Source: a virus
Lineage: Duplodnaviria > Heunggongvirae > Uroviricota > Caudoviricetes
IMG/VR virus record: IMGVR_UViG_2571042372_000002
Direction: 5' to 3' (one strand)
Length of the DNA: 23,274 nt
Under the pieces are notes generated by a model that was given only the letters and a program-made list of their open reading frames with translations, made no database searches and had not been told where the DNA came from. Positions 3,228 through 7,971 of this stretch are shown here, piece after piece. The position numbers and the translations under genes were made by a program. Position 1 is the stretch's first letter, and each line of letters starts with the position of its first letter.

Positions 3228-3417
3228 ACTGCAGGCGCTGCGTCAGGCGCGCCTTGATTTATTAACCGGTAAACGGGTGGTGTCTGTCCAGAAAGATGGT
3301 CGCAGAATTGAATATACGGCAGCTTCTCTGGATGAGCTTAACCGGGCGATCAATGATGCGGAGTCGGTACTGGGGACAACCCGCCGTCGCCGTCGTCCGC
3401 TGGGAGTGAGGTTATGA
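3211..3417 (+). CDS. W: head-tail joining protein (lambda gpW homolog)
   Basis: 68 aa; ...LTGKRVVSVQKDGRRIEYTAASL... matches lambda W (...[23 protein letters not shown]...). GGAGGA SD at 3201-3206; ATGA overlap with B start. Confidence 0.9.
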   Translation: MVTVAELQALRQARLDLLTGKRVVSVQKDGRRIEYTAASLDELNRAINDAESVLGTTRRRRRPLGVRL

Positions 3418-5006
3418 AACGAACGCCTGTCCTGATTGATGTGAACGGCGTTCCGCTTCGTGAGAGTCTCAGCTACAACGGGGGCGGTGCAGGATTTGGC
3501 GGGCAAATGGCTGAGTGGTTGCCACCGGCGCAGAGTGCCGATGCGGCCCTGCTGCCCGCGTTGCGTCTGGGGAATGCCCGGGCAGATGATCTGGTGCGCA
3601 ATAACGGAATAGCGGCTAATGCGGTGGCTCTGCATAAGGATCACATTGTCGGGCATATGTTTCTGATCAGCTACCGTCCGAACTGGCGCTGGCTGGGGAT
3701 GCGGGAGACCGCAGCAAAAAGCTTTGTCGATGAGGTGGAGGCGGCCTGGTCGGAATACGCCGAAGGGATGTTTGGCGAGATCGACGTGGAAGGAAAACGC
3801 ACGTTCACGGAATTTATCCGTGAAGGTGTGGGCGTTCATGCGTTTAACGGCGAAATCTTTGTGCAGCCGGTCTGGGATACGGAAACCACGCAGTTATTCC
3901 GTACGCGTTTTAAAGCCGTGAGTCCGAAACGGGTGGACACGCCTGGACACGGTATGGGGAACCGTTTTCTGCGGGCCGGTGTGGAGGTCGATCGATATGG
4001 CCGTGCCGTCGCGTACCATATCTGTGAGGATGATTTTCCGTTCTCTGGTAGTGGACGATGGGAACGGATCCCGCGTGAACTTCCCACCGGGCGTCCGGCC
4101 ATGCTGCATATTTTCGAGCCGGTGGAGGACGGGCAGACCCGTGGGGCTAATCAGTTTTACAGCGTCATGGAACGGCTGAAGATGCTCGATTCCCTGCAGG
4201 CAACACAGCTTCAGTCGGCCATAGTGAAGGCGATGTATGCAGCGACGATTGAAAGTGAACTTGATACCGAAAAGGCCTTTGAATATATCGCCGGCGCGCC
4301 ACAGGAGCAGAAGGATAATCCGCTTATTAATATTCTGGAGAAGTTTTCCAGCTGGTATGACACGAATAACGTGACACTGGGCGGTGTCAAAATTCCGCAC
4401 CTTTTCCCTGGTGATGATCTGAAACTACAGACTGCGCAGGATTCAGACAATGGATTTTCTGCGCTTGAACAGGCGCTGCTGCGGTATATCGCCGCCGGTC
4501 TTGGCGTTTCCTACGAACAGTTGTCCCGTGATTACTCGAAGGTCAGTTACTCAAGTGCCCGCGCCTCCGCCAATGAGTCGTGGCGCTATTTTATGGGGCG
4601 GCGAAAATTTATTGCGGCCCGGCTGGCCACGCAGATGTTTTCCTGCTGGCTGGAAGAGGCACTTCTTCGGGGGATTATTCGTCCGCCACGGGCACGTTTT
4701 GATTTTTATCAGGCGCGATCAGCCTGGTCACGGGCAGAGTGGATTGGTGCCGGAAGAATGGCCATTGACGGGCTCAAGGAAGTCCAGGAATCAGTGATGC
4801 GCATTGAGGCCGGACTGAGCACGTATGAGAAAGAGCTGGCGCTGATGGGCGAGGATTATCAGGACATTTTCCGCCAGCAGGTCAGGGAATCTGCTGAGCG
4901 GCAAAAAGCCGGACTCTCACGTCCGGTGTGGATAGAGCAGGCGTATCAGCAGCAGATAGCGGAGAGTCGCAGGCCGGAAGAGGAGACAACACCACGTGAG
5001 ACGTAA
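3414..5006 (+). CDS. B: portal protein (lambda gpB homolog)
   Basis: 530 aa, same size class as lambda B (533 aa) and same position. Motifs GGGAGFGGQ, ADDLVRNNG, FNGEIFVQ, GANQFYSVMERLKMLD, SALEQALLRYIAAGLGVSYEQLSR are conserved with lambda B as recalled. Confidence 0.93.
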   Translation: MKRTPVLIDVNGVPLRESLSYNGGGAGFGGQMAEWLPPAQSADAALLPALRLGNARADDLVRNNGIAANAVALHKDHIVGHMFLISYRPNWRWLGMRETAAKSFVDEVEAAWSEYAEGMFGEIDVEGKRTFTEFIREGVGVHAFNGEIFVQPVWDTETTQLFRTRFKAVSPKRVDTPGHGMGNRFLRAGVEVDRYGRAVAYHICEDDFPFSGSGRWERIPRELPTGRPAMLHIFEPVEDGQTRGANQFYSVMERLKMLDSLQATQLQSAIVKAMYAATIESELDTEKAFEYIAGAPQEQKDNPLINILEKFSSWYDTNNVTLGGVKIPHLFPGDDLKLQTAQDSDNGFSALEQALLRYIAAGLGVSYEQLSRDYSKVSYSSARASANESWRYFMGRRKFIAARLATQMFSCWLEEALLRGIIRPPRARFDFYQARSAWSRAEWIGAGRMAIDGLKEVQESVMRIEAGLSTYEKELALMGEDYQDIFRQQVRESAERQKAGLSRPVWIEQAYQQQIAESRRPEEETTPRET

Positions 5007-6501
5007 TCTTTCACACATTATTGCCGCAGCATTCAATGAACCGCTGCTTCTGGAGCCCGCCTATGCGCGGGTTTTCTTTTGCGCGCTCGGGCGCGAGATG
5101 GGGGCAGCAAGTCTTTCGGTACCACAACAGCAGGTACAGTTTGATGCTCCCGGAATGCTGGCTGAAACGGACGAGTACATGGCCGGAGGTAAACGACCGG
5201 CCCGTGTTTACCGGGTGGTGAACGGTATTGCTGTACTGCCGGTGACCGGCACGCTGGTGCACCGGCTGGGTGGTATGCGGCCATTTTCCGGAATGACAGG
5301 CTATGACGGCATTGTCGCCTGTCTTCAGCAGGCAATGGCGGATAGCCAGGTGCGGGGCGTACTGCTGGACATTGACAGTCCGGGCGGGCAGGCCGCCGGC
5401 GCGTTTGACTGCGCTGACATGATTTACCGCCTCCGTCAGCAGAAGCCGGTCTGGGCACTGTGCAATGACACGGCCTGTTCTGCAGCCATGCTGCTGGCGT
5501 CGGCCTGCTCCCGACGGCTGGTTACCCAGACATCCCGTATCGGCTCCATTGGCGTGATGATGAGCCATGTCAGCTATGCCGGTCATCTGGCGCAGGCCGG
5601 TGTGGATATCACGCTGATTTACTCAGGGGCGCACAAGGTGGATGGCAATCAGTTTGAAGCGTTGCCGGCAGAGGTTCGCCAGGACATGCAGCAGCGGATT
5701 GATGCGGCGCGCCGGATGTTTGCCGAAAAAGTGGCGATGTATACCGGTCTGTCTGTTGATGCCGTCACGGGAACAGAGGCTGCCGTTTTTGAAGGTCAGT
5801 CCGGCATTGAGGCCGGGCTGGCGGATGAATTAATCAATGCGTCGGATGCCATCAGTGTGATGGCCACGGCGCTGAACAGTAATGTCAGAGGAGGTACTAT
5901 GCCGCAATTAACTGCAACGGAAGCCGCCGCGCAGGAGAACCAGCGAGTGATGGGGATCCTGACATGCCAGGAAGCGAAAGGACGTGAACAGCTTGCCACG
6001 ATGCTGGCAGGACAACAGGGCATGAGCGTTGAACAGGCCCGGGCGATTCTGGCCGCGGCGGCACCGCAGCAGCCGGTGGCATCCACGCAGAGTGAAGCCG
6101 ATCGCATTATGGTGTGTGAAGAAGCGAACGGTCGTGAACAACTGGCGGCAACGCTGGCGGCGATGCCGGAGATGACGGTGGAAAAAGCCCGCCCGATCCT
6201 GGCTGCTTCACCGCAGGCGGATGCCGGACCATCACTCCGTGATCAGATCATGGCACTGGATGAGGCAAAAGGGGCTGAGGCGCAGGCTGAACAGCTGGCT
6301 GCCTGCCCGGGAATGACAGTGGAGAGCGCCCGGGCTGTGCTGGCTGCGGGATCAGGTAAGGCAGAACCGGTCTCTGCATCCACAACCGCCATGTTTGAAC
6401 ATTTCATGGCGAACCATTCACCGGCAGCGGTACAGGGTGGCGTGGCACAGACGTCAGCAGACGGTGATGCGGACGTGAAAATGCTCATGGCCATGCCATG
6501 A
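4996..6501 (+). CDS. C: head maturation protease / minor capsid protein C (S49 ClpP-like peptidase; lambda gpC homolog), extended C-terminus
   Basis: GTG start at 4996 overlapping the B stop. N-terminal half (FNEPLLLEPAYARVFFCAL, VVNGIAVLPVTGTLV, GAFDCADMIYR, RRLVTQTSRIGSIGVMM, ITLIYSGAHKVDGN) is collinear with lambda C. 501 aa versus 439 aa in lambda, owing to extra repeats in the C-terminal scaffold part. Confidence 0.9.
   Translation: MRRNLSHIIAAAFNEPLLLEPAYARVFFCALGREMGAASLSVPQQQVQFDAPGMLAETDEYMAGGKRPARVYRVVNGIAVLPVTGTLVHRLGGMRPFSGMTGYDGIVACLQQAMADSQVRGVLLDIDSPGGQAAGAFDCADMIYRLRQQKPVWALCNDTACSAAMLLASACSRRLVTQTSRIGSIGVMMSHVSYAGHLAQAGVDITLIYSGAHKVDGNQFEALPAEVRQDMQQRIDAARRMFAEKVAMYTGLSVDAVTGTEAAVFEGQSGIEAGLADELINASDAISVMATALNSNVRGGTMPQLTATEAAAQENQRVMGILTCQEAKGREQLATMLAGQQGMSVEQARAILAAAAPQQPVASTQSEADRIMVCEEANGREQLAATLAAMPEMTVEKARPILAASPQADAGPSLRDQIMALDEAKGAEAQAEQLAACPGMTVESARAVLAAGSGKAEPVSASTTAMFEHFMANHSPAAVQGGVAQTSADGDADVKMLMAMP
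5899..6501 (+). CDS. nu3: scaffolding protein Nu3 (in-frame internal start within C)
   Basis: Perfect AGGAGG (5889-5894) 4 nt upstream of ATG 5899, in frame with C, at the position equivalent to the lambda Nu3 start. Product MPQLTATEAAAQENQRVMGIL... contains the lambda Nu3-like motif (RIMGILNCEEAHGRE... in lambda). Confidence 0.7.
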   Translation: MPQLTATEAAAQENQRVMGILTCQEAKGREQLATMLAGQQGMSVEQARAILAAAAPQQPVASTQSEADRIMVCEEANGREQLAATLAAMPEMTVEKARPILAASPQADAGPSLRDQIMALDEAKGAEAQAEQLAACPGMTVESARAVLAAGSGKAEPVSASTTAMFEHFMANHSPAAVQGGVAQTSADGDADVKMLMAMP

Positions 6502-6537: not shown

Positions 6538-6885
6538 ATGGTGACGAAAACCATCACTGAACAGCGTGCGGAAGTACGTATTTTTGCCGGTAATGATCCG
6601 GCTCATACCGCCACAGGCAGCAGCGGGATTTCCTCGCCAACACCGGCACTGACGCCCCTGATGCTGGATGAAGCCACCGGGAAACTGGTGGTCTGGGACG
6701 GACAGAAAGCCGGTAGTGCGGTTGGCATACTGGTACTGCCGCTTGAAGGCACAGAGACGGCGCTGACGTATTACAAGTCGGGAACCTTTGCGACGGAGGC
6801 AATCCACTGGCCTGAAAGTGTGGATGAACACAAAAAGGCCAACGCCTTTGCTGGCAGTGCCCTGAGTCACGCGGCGCTGCCGTAA
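6538..6885 (+). CDS. D: head decoration protein (lambda gpD homolog)
   Basis: 115 aa; NDPAHTATG, TPLMLD, KLVVWDG, AVGIL, TYYKSGTF, KANAFAG match lambda gpD. AGGAGG SD at 6523-6528. Confidence 0.92.
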   Translation: MVTKTITEQRAEVRIFAGNDPAHTATGSSGISSPTPALTPLMLDEATGKLVVWDGQKAGSAVGILVLPLEGTETALTYYKSGTFATEAIHWPESVDEHKKANAFAGSALSHAALP

Positions 6886-6942: not shown

Positions 6943-7971
6943 ATGGGATTGTTTACGACCCGCCAGTTACTCGGTTATACCGAACAAAAAGTTAAATTTC
7001 GTGCGCTGTTTCTGGAGCTGTTTTTCCGCCGTACGGTGAATTTCCATACCGAAGAGGTGATGCTGGACAAAATTACCGGAAAAACGCCGGTGGCGGCCTA
7101 TGTCTCCCCGGTTGTTGAAGGAAAAGTGCTGCGTCATCGTGGTGGTGAAACCCGCGTGTTGCGTCCGGGCTACGTCAAGCCGAAACACGAATTTAATTAC
7201 CAGCAGGCGGTTGAGCGCCTTCCTGGTGAAGATCCATCTCAACTGAATGATCCGGCTTACCGCCGTCTGCGTATCATTACCGATAACCTCAAACAGGAAG
7301 AGCACGCGATTGTCCAGGTGGAAGAAATGCAGGCGGTAAATGCTGTGTTGTATGGCAAATACACCATGGAAGGAGACCAGTTCGAGAAAATTGAGGTCGA
7401 TTTTGGCAGGTCGACGAAGAATAACATCACTCAGGGTAGTGGTAAGGAGTGGTCAAAACAGGATCGTGACACGTTCGATCCTACACATGATATTGACCTC
7501 TACTGCGACCTGGCCAGCGGTCTTGTGAATATTGCCATTATGGACGGTACCGTCTGGCGTCTTCTGAATGGTTTTAAGCTGTTCCGCGAAAAACTGGATA
7601 CCCGTCGCGGTTCAAATTCTCAACTCGAAACGGCAGTGAAAGATCTGGGCGCAGTGGTGTCCTTCAAGGGGTATTACGGCGATCTGGCCATTGTGGTGGC
7701 GAAAACGTCTTATATAGCAGAAGACGGTATCGAAAAACGTTATCTTCCAGATGGCATGCTGGTTCTGGGGAATACTGCTGCAGATGGGATCCGTTGTTAC
7801 GGTGCCATTCAGGATGCTCAGGCGTTGTCCGAAGGTGTGGTGGCCTCTTCCCGTTATCCGAAACACTGGCTGACGGTAGGGGATCCCGCCCGTGAATTTA
7901 CCATGACGCAGTCCGCGCCGCTGATGGTGTTGCCGGACCCGGATGAGTTTGTGGTGGTACAGGTGAAATAA
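6943..7971 (+). CDS. E: major capsid protein (lambda gpE homolog)
   Basis: 342 aa versus 341 aa in lambda, same position after D. N-terminal region (TTRQLLGYTEQKVKF..LFLELFFRRT) resembles lambda E (MSMYTTAQLLAANEQKFKFDPLFLRLFFRES). Confidence 0.93.
   Translation: MGLFTTRQLLGYTEQKVKFRALFLELFFRRTVNFHTEEVMLDKITGKTPVAAYVSPVVEGKVLRHRGGETRVLRPGYVKPKHEFNYQQAVERLPGEDPSQLNDPAYRRLRIITDNLKQEEHAIVQVEEMQAVNAVLYGKYTMEGDQFEKIEVDFGRSTKNNITQGSGKEWSKQDRDTFDPTHDIDLYCDLASGLVNIAIMDGTVWRLLNGFKLFREKLDTRRGSNSQLETAVKDLGAVVSFKGYYGDLAIVVAKTSYIAEDGIEKRYLPDGMLVLGNTAADGIRCYGAIQDAQALSEGVVASSRYPKHWLTVGDPAREFTMTQSAPLMVLPDPDEFVVVQVK

Follow-up and report, generated by a model that had tools for sequence, protein, structure and literature searches.

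Gene 5 of the head operon analysed here carries three tandem copies of a unit of about 40 residues in the C-terminal region that it shares with the nested gene 6, and sequence comparison shows these to be the Tri1-Tri3 boxes of phage 21, three ancient paralogous modules of gp5 and gp6. As a whole, the feature is probably explained by ancient paralogues that act as interaction modules of the scaffold, with three sites per chain versus one in lambda. The window, that is, the entire stretch of 23,274 nucleotides that was analysed, comes from a phage closely related (97.6%) to phage 21 but distinct from the sequenced phage 21, and it runs about 590 bases upstream of cos in a prophage-like manner. 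No RNA family was found by an Rfam scan of the entire window.

The ORF at 4996-6501 is identified by its sequence as gene 5 of phage 21. It is 99.9% identical to gene 5 in the phage 21 record M81255.1 and in OL657228.1, with a single silent difference at position 5895, and the same three repeats lie at corresponding coordinates in M81255.1. The N-terminal two thirds of gp5 contain a Peptidase_S49 domain of the SppA/ClpP fold (PF01343; aa 146-293; E 3.7e-35; 121.6 bits versus a cutoff of 24.9), and the protein matches the head maturation protease family PHROG 53 (E 1.7e-228). BLASTP revealed full-length homology with lambda C (53% identity over 412 columns; E 1.5e-135). The gene follows the portal gene (3414-5006) and precedes the shp/D homologue (6538-6885) and the major capsid gene (6943-7971), an order that agrees with the head-operon annotations of both records. 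The same order of portal, C/Nu3, decoration protein, and major capsid protein is found in lambda, and the major capsid proteins of the phage 21 type and of lambda are collinear (342 versus 341 aa) and 62% identical. Several ORFs on the opposite strand over the region (5796-6107, 6243-6494, and others) are unsupported and typical of GC-rich coding DNA.

Gene 6, the Nu3 homologue, is annotated as "gp6" in M81255.1 and as "scaffolding protein" in OL657228.1 (Table 1). Its putative ATG start at 5899 is preceded by a strong Shine-Dalgarno sequence (GGAGG) at a distance of 6 nt, and lambda has a homologous AGGAGG-ATG at Met309 of C; in both phages, this candidate internal start falls at a homologous Gly-Gly-x-Met. 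Although gp6 (200 aa) and lambda Nu3 (201 aa) have nearly the same length, conservation of scaffold length was dropped as an argument because the gp6 start aligns with Met309 of lambda C and not with Met239, the RefSeq nu3 start. The head scaffolding protein family PHROG 8399 and the capsid assembly protein family PHROG 8940 each match gp6 in three stretches. The scaffold region has a second motif, the helix that follows the last unit, which is present in one copy in one-unit and three-unit proteins alike, with the counterparts LDRLMQGAP in lambda and F..AM....P.VG in distant relatives.

Table 1. Features of the gene 5/gene 6 region, in coordinates of the window
Feature	Position	Strand	Basis and remarks
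Gene 5, phage 21 type (lambda C homologue)	4996..6501	+	501 aa from a GTG start; S49 prohead protease joined to a scaffold region at its C terminus
GGAGG Shine-Dalgarno sequence, putative gene 6 RBS	5888..5892	+	Sequence agaGGAGGtactATG; RBS annotated as putative in M81255.1 and OL657228.1
Gene 6 (Nu3 homologue), putative 200-aa scaffolding protein	5899..6501	+	Nested in frame in gene 5; annotated CDS
Unit 1 (Tri1)	5935..6072	+	aa 314-359 of gp5; HMM domain 314-358
Unit 2 (Tri2)	6094..6216	+	aa 367-407; HMM domain E 1e-28
Unit 3 (Tri3)	6235..6357	+	aa 414-454; HMM domain E 3e-27; most diverged unit, GAE replaces GRE
Conserved helix after the last unit, TTAMFEHFMANHSP	6376..6417	+	AF2 helix at gp6 residues 160-173; F..FM..SP columns in the alignment
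Variable acidic C-terminal tail ending KMLMAMP	6418..6498	+	Alignment; highest dN of the gene (0.77); low pLDDT

The preliminary description, made from the letters of the window, had placed a triplicated motif toward the C terminus of the C homologue, in the part common to the nested Nu3 homologue, and both the profile search and the annotation of M81255.1 bear this out. The three peptides that it quoted occur without any change at aa 317-359, 370-407, and 417-454 (nt 5944-6072, 6103-6216, and 6244-6357). An HMM built from the three units recovers domains at aa 314-358, 367-407, and 414-454 (E 1e-27 to 1e-28). The significance of the repeat was assessed by comparing Smith-Waterman scores with those of composition-preserving shuffles; the pairwise BLOSUM62 local scores of the units are 101, 83, and 87, compared with shuffle means of 22 to 25 (z = 18.0, 11.5, and 14.7), and the observed score was reached in none of 2,000 shuffles. 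About 40 columns of the units align in register, 16 of them invariant, and the signature E-A-K-G-R-E ... G-M-T-V-E-x-A-x-x-x-L-A-A is kept in all three across Enterobacterales at 45-64% overall identity. The self-alignment proposed earlier succeeds at the protein level (z 11-18) and fails at the DNA level, where TRF found no tandem repeat and a repeat search returned only short, chance-like direct repeats; internal repeats were also not listed by a BLASTP comparison of the protein with itself. When the units are aligned by codons, their nucleotide identity is 53-66%, which, together with the absence of a DNA tandem repeat, indicates an old repeat that is visible mainly in the protein. Recent slippage or a recent expansion is rejected, since DNA-level repeat detection gave nothing meaningful.

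The triplication is already known. The record M81255.1 ("Bacteriophage 21 head gene operon") annotates a "Tri1 box," a "Tri box," and a "Tri3 box" as repeat_region features with "function unknown," which map to positions 5966-6069, 6106-6216, and 6247-6360 of the window and coincide with the domains found by the unit HMM. The paper associated with this record is presumably Smith & Feiss, Gene 1993. Nothing relevant was found in the literature library that was searched for the Tri boxes, the phage 21 head genes, the motif string, and a lambda procapsid structure with Nu3.

Lambda C carries exactly one unit (aa 357-400; unit HMM, E 1e-18), as stated in the preliminary description, whose lambda motif agrees with the real sequence. 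This single unit is 61% identical to units 1 and 2 of phage 21 and is likewise followed by an L/F..(L/F)M helix; in contrast to the three units of gp5, it stands after a Ser/Thr/Ala-rich linker with 43 aa more than the phage 21 linker. The lengths given earlier for the two C proteins, 501 aa for gp5 and 439 aa for lambda C, are right, and the triplication explains the difference approximately: the two extra units with their linkers contribute 97 aa, but other segments contribute too, namely, the shorter linker before unit 1 (-43 aa) and the tail (+8 aa), for a net gain of 62 aa.

Several lines of comparison date the duplication. The paralogous units differ from one another by a dS of about 1.5 to 1.8, which is near saturation. 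Across proteins, units resemble their positional counterparts more closely (0.64) than they resemble units from other positions (0.54 to 0.56). In a tree of the units, unit 1 clusters with the single units of lambda, phi80, and 783R5, and unit 1 is accordingly the orthologue of the lambda unit, with units 2 and 3 added behind it. The Gifsy-1 protease STM2605 and the proteases of other Salmonella and Providencia prophages also have three units, with position-by-position orthology and about 60% identity in the scaffold part; they differ in their diverged sequences and in a different, longer C-terminal tail. By these comparisons, the duplication is older than the split between those E. coli, Salmonella, and Providencia lineages in which the triplication occurs, and the three-unit form is a stable, widespread wild-type state and not a recent expansion. 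The preliminary description also suggested that the expansion could alter capsid assembly, an idea that finds no support here, given this stable state and the collinear major capsid proteins. Relative to Gifsy-1, the dN values of units 1 to 3 are 0.16, 0.24, and 0.33, compared with 0.25 for the protease, 0.57 for linker 1, and 0.77 for the tail; the corresponding dS is above 2 for unit 2 and 1.5 for unit 3. Purifying selection acts on all three units.

A comparison with related prophages, which had been suggested as a gauge of how common the expansion is, found the three-unit gene in 1,864 of 5,426 complete E. coli genomes, or about a third. The lambda-type one-unit form is present in 3,201 and a four-unit variant in 104 of the same 5,426 genomes. 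Among the 1,870 E. coli genomes with a match, a copy covering at least 80% of the gene is absent in only 6. The three-unit architecture is also found in Gifsy-1 of Salmonella, in Providencia, and in metagenomic relatives, at 45-64% identity. The three-unit gene is therefore an ordinary feature, one of two common states in E. coli prophages. Searched as a profile, the unit is recognized in 419 clusters (50% identity) at E <= 1e-3, nearly all with a single unit, which sits either near the C terminus of S49 proteins of 400-550 aa or in scaffold-sized proteins of 110-200 aa. The four-unit E. coli variant (P0026 / locus L008) resembles phage 21 in its S49 protease, its HDPD decoration protein, its 342-aa Phage_cap_E capsid protein, and an orthologous unit 1, but its units 2 to 4 share 82-89% identity, a sign that these last three units duplicated recently. 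Two-unit proteins (P0130 and P0217) were found as well, and the unit has been duplicated independently in these and in the four-unit E. coli lineage. Across intact genes, the number of units is 1 (lambda, phi80, and N15), 3 (phage 21 and Gifsy-1), or 4. In-register deletion variants with two units or truncated units occur in databases (P0018, P0016, P0022, P0008, P0009, and P0011), the apparent two-unit ones only as partial sequences; these variants, most of which are partial, possibly come from decaying prophages.

AF2 predicts each unit to be a small three-helix bundle. The helices of unit 1, the first of which retains an extra VMG/IMG turn, span gp6 residues 6-21, 30-37, and 44-53 (pLDDT about 80), and isolated unit 2 is modeled with three helices at a pLDDT of 82 and a pTM of 0.56. 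For the whole 200-aa gp6, the pTM is 0.28, which, compared with the value for the isolated unit, suggests that there is no fixed arrangement between the units. A PDB sequence search with gp6 gave a chance match only (E 1.7), and Foldseek of the gp6 model against the PDB gave nothing at E below 3, although the pTM of 0.28 makes such a whole-chain comparison meaningless. In predicted topology and size, the unit is like generic three-helix mini-domains such as RuvA domain III, the protein A Z-domain/affibody, and UBA, all of which are protein-protein interaction modules.

We infer that the unit most likely serves the scaffold as a protein-interaction module that folds independently, and it is taken as such because no other part of the scaffold region is as conserved across the S49 protease-scaffold class. 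Each unit would fold by itself into a small three-helix bundle, and short Pro/Ala/Gln-rich linkers would join the units like beads on a string. Through these units, the scaffold and the co-assembled protease may engage the growing shell by binding the major capsid protein at its inner face, other scaffold molecules, or both. One gp6 or gp5 chain would then have three sites, compared with one in lambda Nu3/C, and the long disordered linker of lambda would have been traded for valency; no change in capsid geometry would be expected. More tentatively, and with less confidence than in this explanation for phage 21, the unit may be what binds the capsid protein or crosslinks the scaffold throughout the lambda-type S49 protease-scaffold class, with its copy number acting as an evolvable dial of valency against linker length.

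The position of the units speaks against the interaction-module view, since the well-studied scaffolds bind coat protein at their extreme C terminus, whereas here the units lie ahead of a conserved helix and a tail and may therefore serve self-association or docking of the portal or protease instead. In favor of the interaction-module view, the coat-binding parts of the P22, SPP1, phi29, 80alpha, and herpesvirus scaffolds are helical C-terminal elements (PMC11565965). P22 gp8 offers a functional analogy only: in that T=7 tailed phage, too, a small helical element in the C-terminal part, the coat-binding helix-turn-helix, belongs to a scaffold that is mostly disordered (PMC11565965), but the unit here is three-helical, tandem, and not at the extreme C terminus, and it has no PDB sequence or fold match. 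It is rather unlikely, but the most credible of the other explanations, that the units are self-association modules, such that the single unit of lambda drives Nu3-Nu3 and C-Nu3 oligomerization while capsid binding resides in the FxxFM helix or the tail; in phage 21, the units would pack within one chain as a single-chain oligomer or cross-link the scaffold core more. Yeast two-hybrid analysis of lambda detected Nu3-Nu3 and C-Nu3 interactions, which speak for either view, and this C-terminal region is all that C and Nu3 have in common (PMC3224144). The tail also evolves fastest, which would fit a tail that tracks the capsid protein. The same screen reported a Nu3-E interaction, which weighs against the self-association explanation and in favor of the interaction-module view, and the low pTM of the three-unit chain does not point to a defined packing between units. 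The Nu3-B interaction, which is literature-curated from lambda genetics, was undetected in that screen (PMC3224144).

The remaining explanations are much less probable. The extra units might be neutral spacers of irrelevant sequence that replace the disordered linker of lambda and set the length of the chain, as the shorter linker before unit 1 (by 43 aa) and the existence of in-register deletion variants would allow. This is improbable and already disfavored by the selection data: the signature is kept in all three units across Enterobacterales, the dN of the units (0.16 to 0.33) is close to the protease value and much lower than the values of the tail and linker 1, with dS near saturation, genomes without a nearly complete copy are rare, and the deletion variants are mostly partial sequences that may stem from decaying prophages. 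Even less credible is the idea that the units are nucleic acid-binding motifs similar to the helix-hairpin-helix, for which PGMTVE.A..IL resembles h-x-x-h-P-G-I-G-x-x-x-A-x-x-I, a RuvA chain is among the top fold matches, and there is a weak Pfam match (PF00633; aa 427-450; E 0.097). Assignment to this family is rejected, as the match reaches 13.0 bits against a cutoff of 24 and concerns unit 3 only. That the repeat is a chance product of low-complexity, alanine-rich composition has almost no probability left: gp6 does contain 23% alanine (46 of 200 residues) and no repeat was detected in the DNA, but this explanation is refuted by the shuffles that preserve composition, the in-register alignment with its invariant positions, and the recognition of the unit in hundreds of unrelated clusters.

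The triplication carries little weight as a discovery, since it was annotated before and is common in E. coli prophages. What value remains lies in the unit, which, across hundreds of S49 protease-scaffold families, is the best conserved signature within the scaffold region. The natural one-, three-, and four-unit variants, together with the apparent two-unit partial sequences, provide a genetic handle on the partner of the unit and on valency in lambda-like assembly. If the class-wide interpretation of the unit is true, the natural one-, three-, and four-unit proteins, with capsid proteins about 60% identical, would form a ready series for relating scaffold valency to the fidelity of T=7 assembly.

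The tandem motif is the Tri-box triplication already annotated in gp5/gp6 of phage 21, and it is ancient, common, and under selection. In a megablast search of the phage collection, gene 5 of coliphage 21 (M81255.1, titled "Bacteriophage 21 head gene operon," and the complete genome OL657228.1) was 99.9% identical to the ORF studied here, with a silent T/C at position 5895 as the sole difference from M81255.1. M81255.1 carries three repeat_region features within gene 6, each noted as "function unknown; putative"; with an offset of 424 bases they map onto the three units, so the triplication has been on record since that entry was deposited, presumably with Smith and Feiss (Gene, 1993). Over its whole 23 kb, the window shares 97.6 to 97.8% identity with phage 21 and with the ECOR13 phages PhiR57_1 and PhiR63_2. 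As would be the case for a prophage, it begins about 590 bases before the left end of phage 21: position 1 of OL657228.1 (cos/left end) corresponds to position 591, and positions 1-590 continue without a break in PhiR57_1 and PhiR63_2, whose records are in prophage order. The source is therefore probably a phage-21-like genome that was either integrated or circularly joined. OL657228.1 also annotates "CII binding site matches ttgynnnnnnttgy" inside gene 5/6 on the minus strand (5904-5917 and 6138-6151); the window contains three matches on the minus strand and none on the plus strand, with 1.4 per strand expected by chance, and these annotations look like pattern matches rather than real sites.

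Features of the gene 5/6 region and predicted helices of gp6
Feature	Window position	Other coordinates	Remarks
Portal gene	3414-5006		Upstream of gene 5
Gene 5, S49 prohead protease/scaffold	4996-6501, +		GTG start, 501 aa
Shine-Dalgarno GGAGG of gene 6	5888-5892		Ahead of start 5899
Gene 6, Nu3 homologue/scaffolding protein	start 5899		In frame within gene 5; annotated in M81255.1 and OL657228.1
"Tri1 box"	5966-6069	M81255.1 5542-5645	repeat_region annotation
"Tri box"	6106-6216	M81255.1 5682-5792	repeat_region annotation
"Tri3 box"	6247-6360	M81255.1 5823-5936	repeat_region annotation
Unit 1 helices		gp6 residues 6-21/30-37/44-53	AlphaFold2
Unit 2 helices		gp6 residues 66-71/80-87/94-103	AlphaFold2
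Unit 3 helices		gp6 residues 113-118/127-134/141-151	AlphaFold2
Extra helix after units		gp6 residues 160-173	AlphaFold2
Decoration gene shp	6538-6885		Downstream of gene 5
Major capsid gene 7	6943-7971		Downstream of shp

The three peptides quoted in the preliminary description are present at gp5 residues 317-359, 370-407, and 417-454, and its nucleotide coordinates were exact. Pairwise local BLOSUM62 scores among them are 101, 83, and 87, versus 22 to 25 in shuffled sequences (z-scores of 18.0, 11.5, and 14.7; none of 2000 composition-preserving shuffles scored as high). In an HMM made from the units themselves, their limits fall at residues 314-358, 367-407, and 414-454 (domain E values of 1e-27 to 1e-28). 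The HMM detects one unit, and no more, in lambda C, at residues 357-400, where the lambda sequence given in the preliminary description was also correct. The internal repeat is therefore statistically solid, lambda has a single copy, and the description was essentially right. At the DNA level, Tandem Repeats Finder detected no tandem repeat and a DNA repeat search returned only short, chance-looking families; nucleotide identity between codon-aligned units is 53 to 66%, with synonymous divergence near saturation (about 1.5 to 1.8). The sequence divergence indicates that the triplication is old and not a recent expansion.

The length of 501 aa, compared with 439 aa for lambda C, had been attributed to the extra copies, which holds only approximately. 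By the HMM unit coordinates, gp5 is composed of 313 + 141 + 47 residues and lambda C of 356 + 44 + 39; the units add 97 residues and the tail adds 8, whereas the disordered linker before the unit is 43 residues shorter in phage 21 than in lambda. Elsewhere, gp5 aligns with lambda C at 53% identity (412 columns) and contains a Peptidase_S49 domain at residues 146-293 (Pfam; E = 3.7e-35). Nothing indicates the altered capsid assembly that had been suggested: the major capsid proteins gp7 and lambda E are collinear (342 versus 341 aa; 62% identical), and a third of E. coli genomes carry the three-unit gene as a stable wild-type form.

Among 117 phage records matching the 200-aa gp6 (E ≤ 1e-3), 20 are of the three-unit type (at least 80% coverage), including phage 21, ev017, 4A7, 1W, 3W, D2, and the PhiR12, PhiR57, and PhiR63 phages; in lambda-type records the match is confined to the first unit. 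Iterated-HMM counts gave one unit each in lambda, phi80, N15, and vB_EcoM-783R5 and three each in phage 21 and Gifsy-1. Of the 5426 complete E. coli genomes, 1864 carry a three-unit gene 6 (coverage of 80% or more, identity of 90% or more), 3201 a lambda-type one-unit region, and 104 a four-unit variant (protein P0026) whose S49 peptidase gene is intact and annotated. The four-unit gene (locus L008:1-1043, on a contig of E. coli GCA_032727965.1, and matches H158-H182) lies beside genes for a decoration protein and a capsid protein of 342 aa. The three-unit form is also found in Salmonella and Providencia alcalifaciens. The protein database further holds in-register two-unit deletion variants (P0018, P0016, and P0022) and truncated-unit variants (P0008, P0009, and P0011, the last representing 53 member sequences), with two units, Tri1/Tri2 fusions, and cut-down Tri2 or Tri3 among them; they may stem from functional or decaying prophages or be errors of assembly.

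In the unit tree, unit 1 of every multi-unit protein clusters with the single units of lambda, phi80, 783R5, and the database protein P0131, and in both groups helix 1 is longer by three residues (V/I-M-G), which are absent from units 2 and 3; the latter cluster largely by position. Same-position units are more alike across proteins (mean identity, 0.64) than different-position units (0.54 to 0.56), and the triplication is thus older than the split between these lineages. Units 2 to 4 of the four-unit lineage share 82 to 89% identity, pointing to a duplication that was both separate and recent, and two-unit proteins with no relation to the enteric group (P0130 and P0217) indicate further independent duplications. 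Between the phage 21 type and Gifsy-1, dN is 0.16, 0.24, and 0.33 for units 1, 2, and 3, compared with 0.25 in the protease domain, 0.57 in the first interunit linker (residues 359-366), and 0.77 in the C-terminal tail; dS is close to saturation throughout. Selection maintains all three units.

A search of 1.84 billion cluster representatives with the three-unit profile matched 419 proteins at E ≤ 1e-3, with 43 at the stricter limit of E ≤ 1e-10. Nearly all of the matches are single-unit proteins, with the unit located 40 to 100 residues from the C terminus of 400- to 550-aa proteins or inside scaffold-sized proteins of 110 to 200 aa, and the multi-unit matches are mostly phage-21-type fragments. 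The consensus is R-I-x-A-I-L-x-C-x-E-A-K-G-R-E-x-L-A-x-x-L-A-x-x-P-G-M-T-V-E-Q-A-x-x-I-L-A-A-A-P. A Pfam scan of gp5 found no family over the unit, and the PHROG families "head scaffolding protein" and "capsid assembly protein" gave three matches each on the units. In one match, the Gifsy-like three-unit homologue P0170 (258 aa), Val, Ile, Met, Leu, and Phe stand in place of nearly all Ala, Thr, Pro, and Ser, as a C-to-T converted template (e.g., bisulfite-treated or heavily deaminated DNA) would produce; it is a database artefact and not a real variant. P0143 (844 aa), P0119 (504 aa), and P0110 (199 aa) are lambda C sequences, of which P0143 has an unrelated N-terminal sequence of about 380 residues fused in frame (presumably tape-measure-like, by its appearance) and P0119 a different one of about 170 residues (presumably Nu1-like); they probably stem from rearranged lambda vectors or from misassemblies in public data.

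The annotated start of the scaffold gp6, Met302 of gp5 (GGAGG ahead; 5885-5901), aligns with lambda C Met309, which also has a strong AGGAGG-N5-ATG (lambda locus L003, NC_001416, positions 2633 and about 2843). The lambda nu3 coding sequence in RefSeq/GenBank begins 70 codons further upstream, at Met239, with a poor Shine-Dalgarno sequence, so this annotation (201 aa) may be too long, with 131 aa expected; N15 gene 6 is annotated from the Met309-equivalent position, which we take to be the start of lambda Nu3 in UniProt as well. An AlphaFold2 model of gp6 built with 15 aligned homologues (mean pLDDT, 68; pTM, 0.28) has a low-confidence tail and gives all units a common pattern of helix, short turn at E-A-K-G, helix, loop at P-G-M-T, and helix. 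A single-unit model from 37 aligned units (pLDDT, 82; pTM, 0.56) also has three helices. By these models, each unit would form a small three-helix module of its own. Comparison with solved domains, including the P22 scaffold helix-turn-helix, demonstrated no relationship. Behind the last unit lies a second conserved, predicted helical motif, F/L-x-x-F/A-M ... P (6376-6417; gp6 residues 160-173). It occurs once in lambda (LDRLMQGAP) and in phage 21 (FEHFMANHSP), and as F..AM....P.VG.D in distant alpha-/betaproteobacterial-looking relatives.

The units are located in the segment common to the protease and the nested scaffold, and the sequence comparisons show them to be independently duplicable, conserved under selection, and a hallmark of the scaffold region in lambda-C-type S49 protease-scaffold proteins. 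We infer that the unit is probably a protein-protein interaction module recruiting the scaffold into the assembling shell, with the capsid protein, another scaffold molecule, or the portal as candidate partners. In lambda, Nu3-Nu3, C-Nu3, and Nu3-E interactions were detected by yeast two-hybrid, and Nu3-B is a literature-curated interaction not detected in that screen (PMC3224144). The coat-binding parts of other scaffolds are helical C-terminal elements (PMC11565965). In phage 21, the extreme C terminus, which is the usual seat of coat binding, is taken by the further conserved helix, a candidate for the actual capsid-binding element, and the fast-evolving tail, and for this reason self-association of the units is the main rival explanation. 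The selection data speak against neutral spacers, which are disfavoured, and a reading as HhH or DNA-binding motifs has a sub-threshold Pfam match as its sole basis. The gain of units in phage 21 has its counterpart in the loss of 43 residues from the disordered linker that lambda has ahead of its unit. If the unit is a recruiting module, the protease, which shares the scaffold's C terminus, would be brought into the assembling shell by the same unit, and three tandem units would provide three interaction sites per chain.
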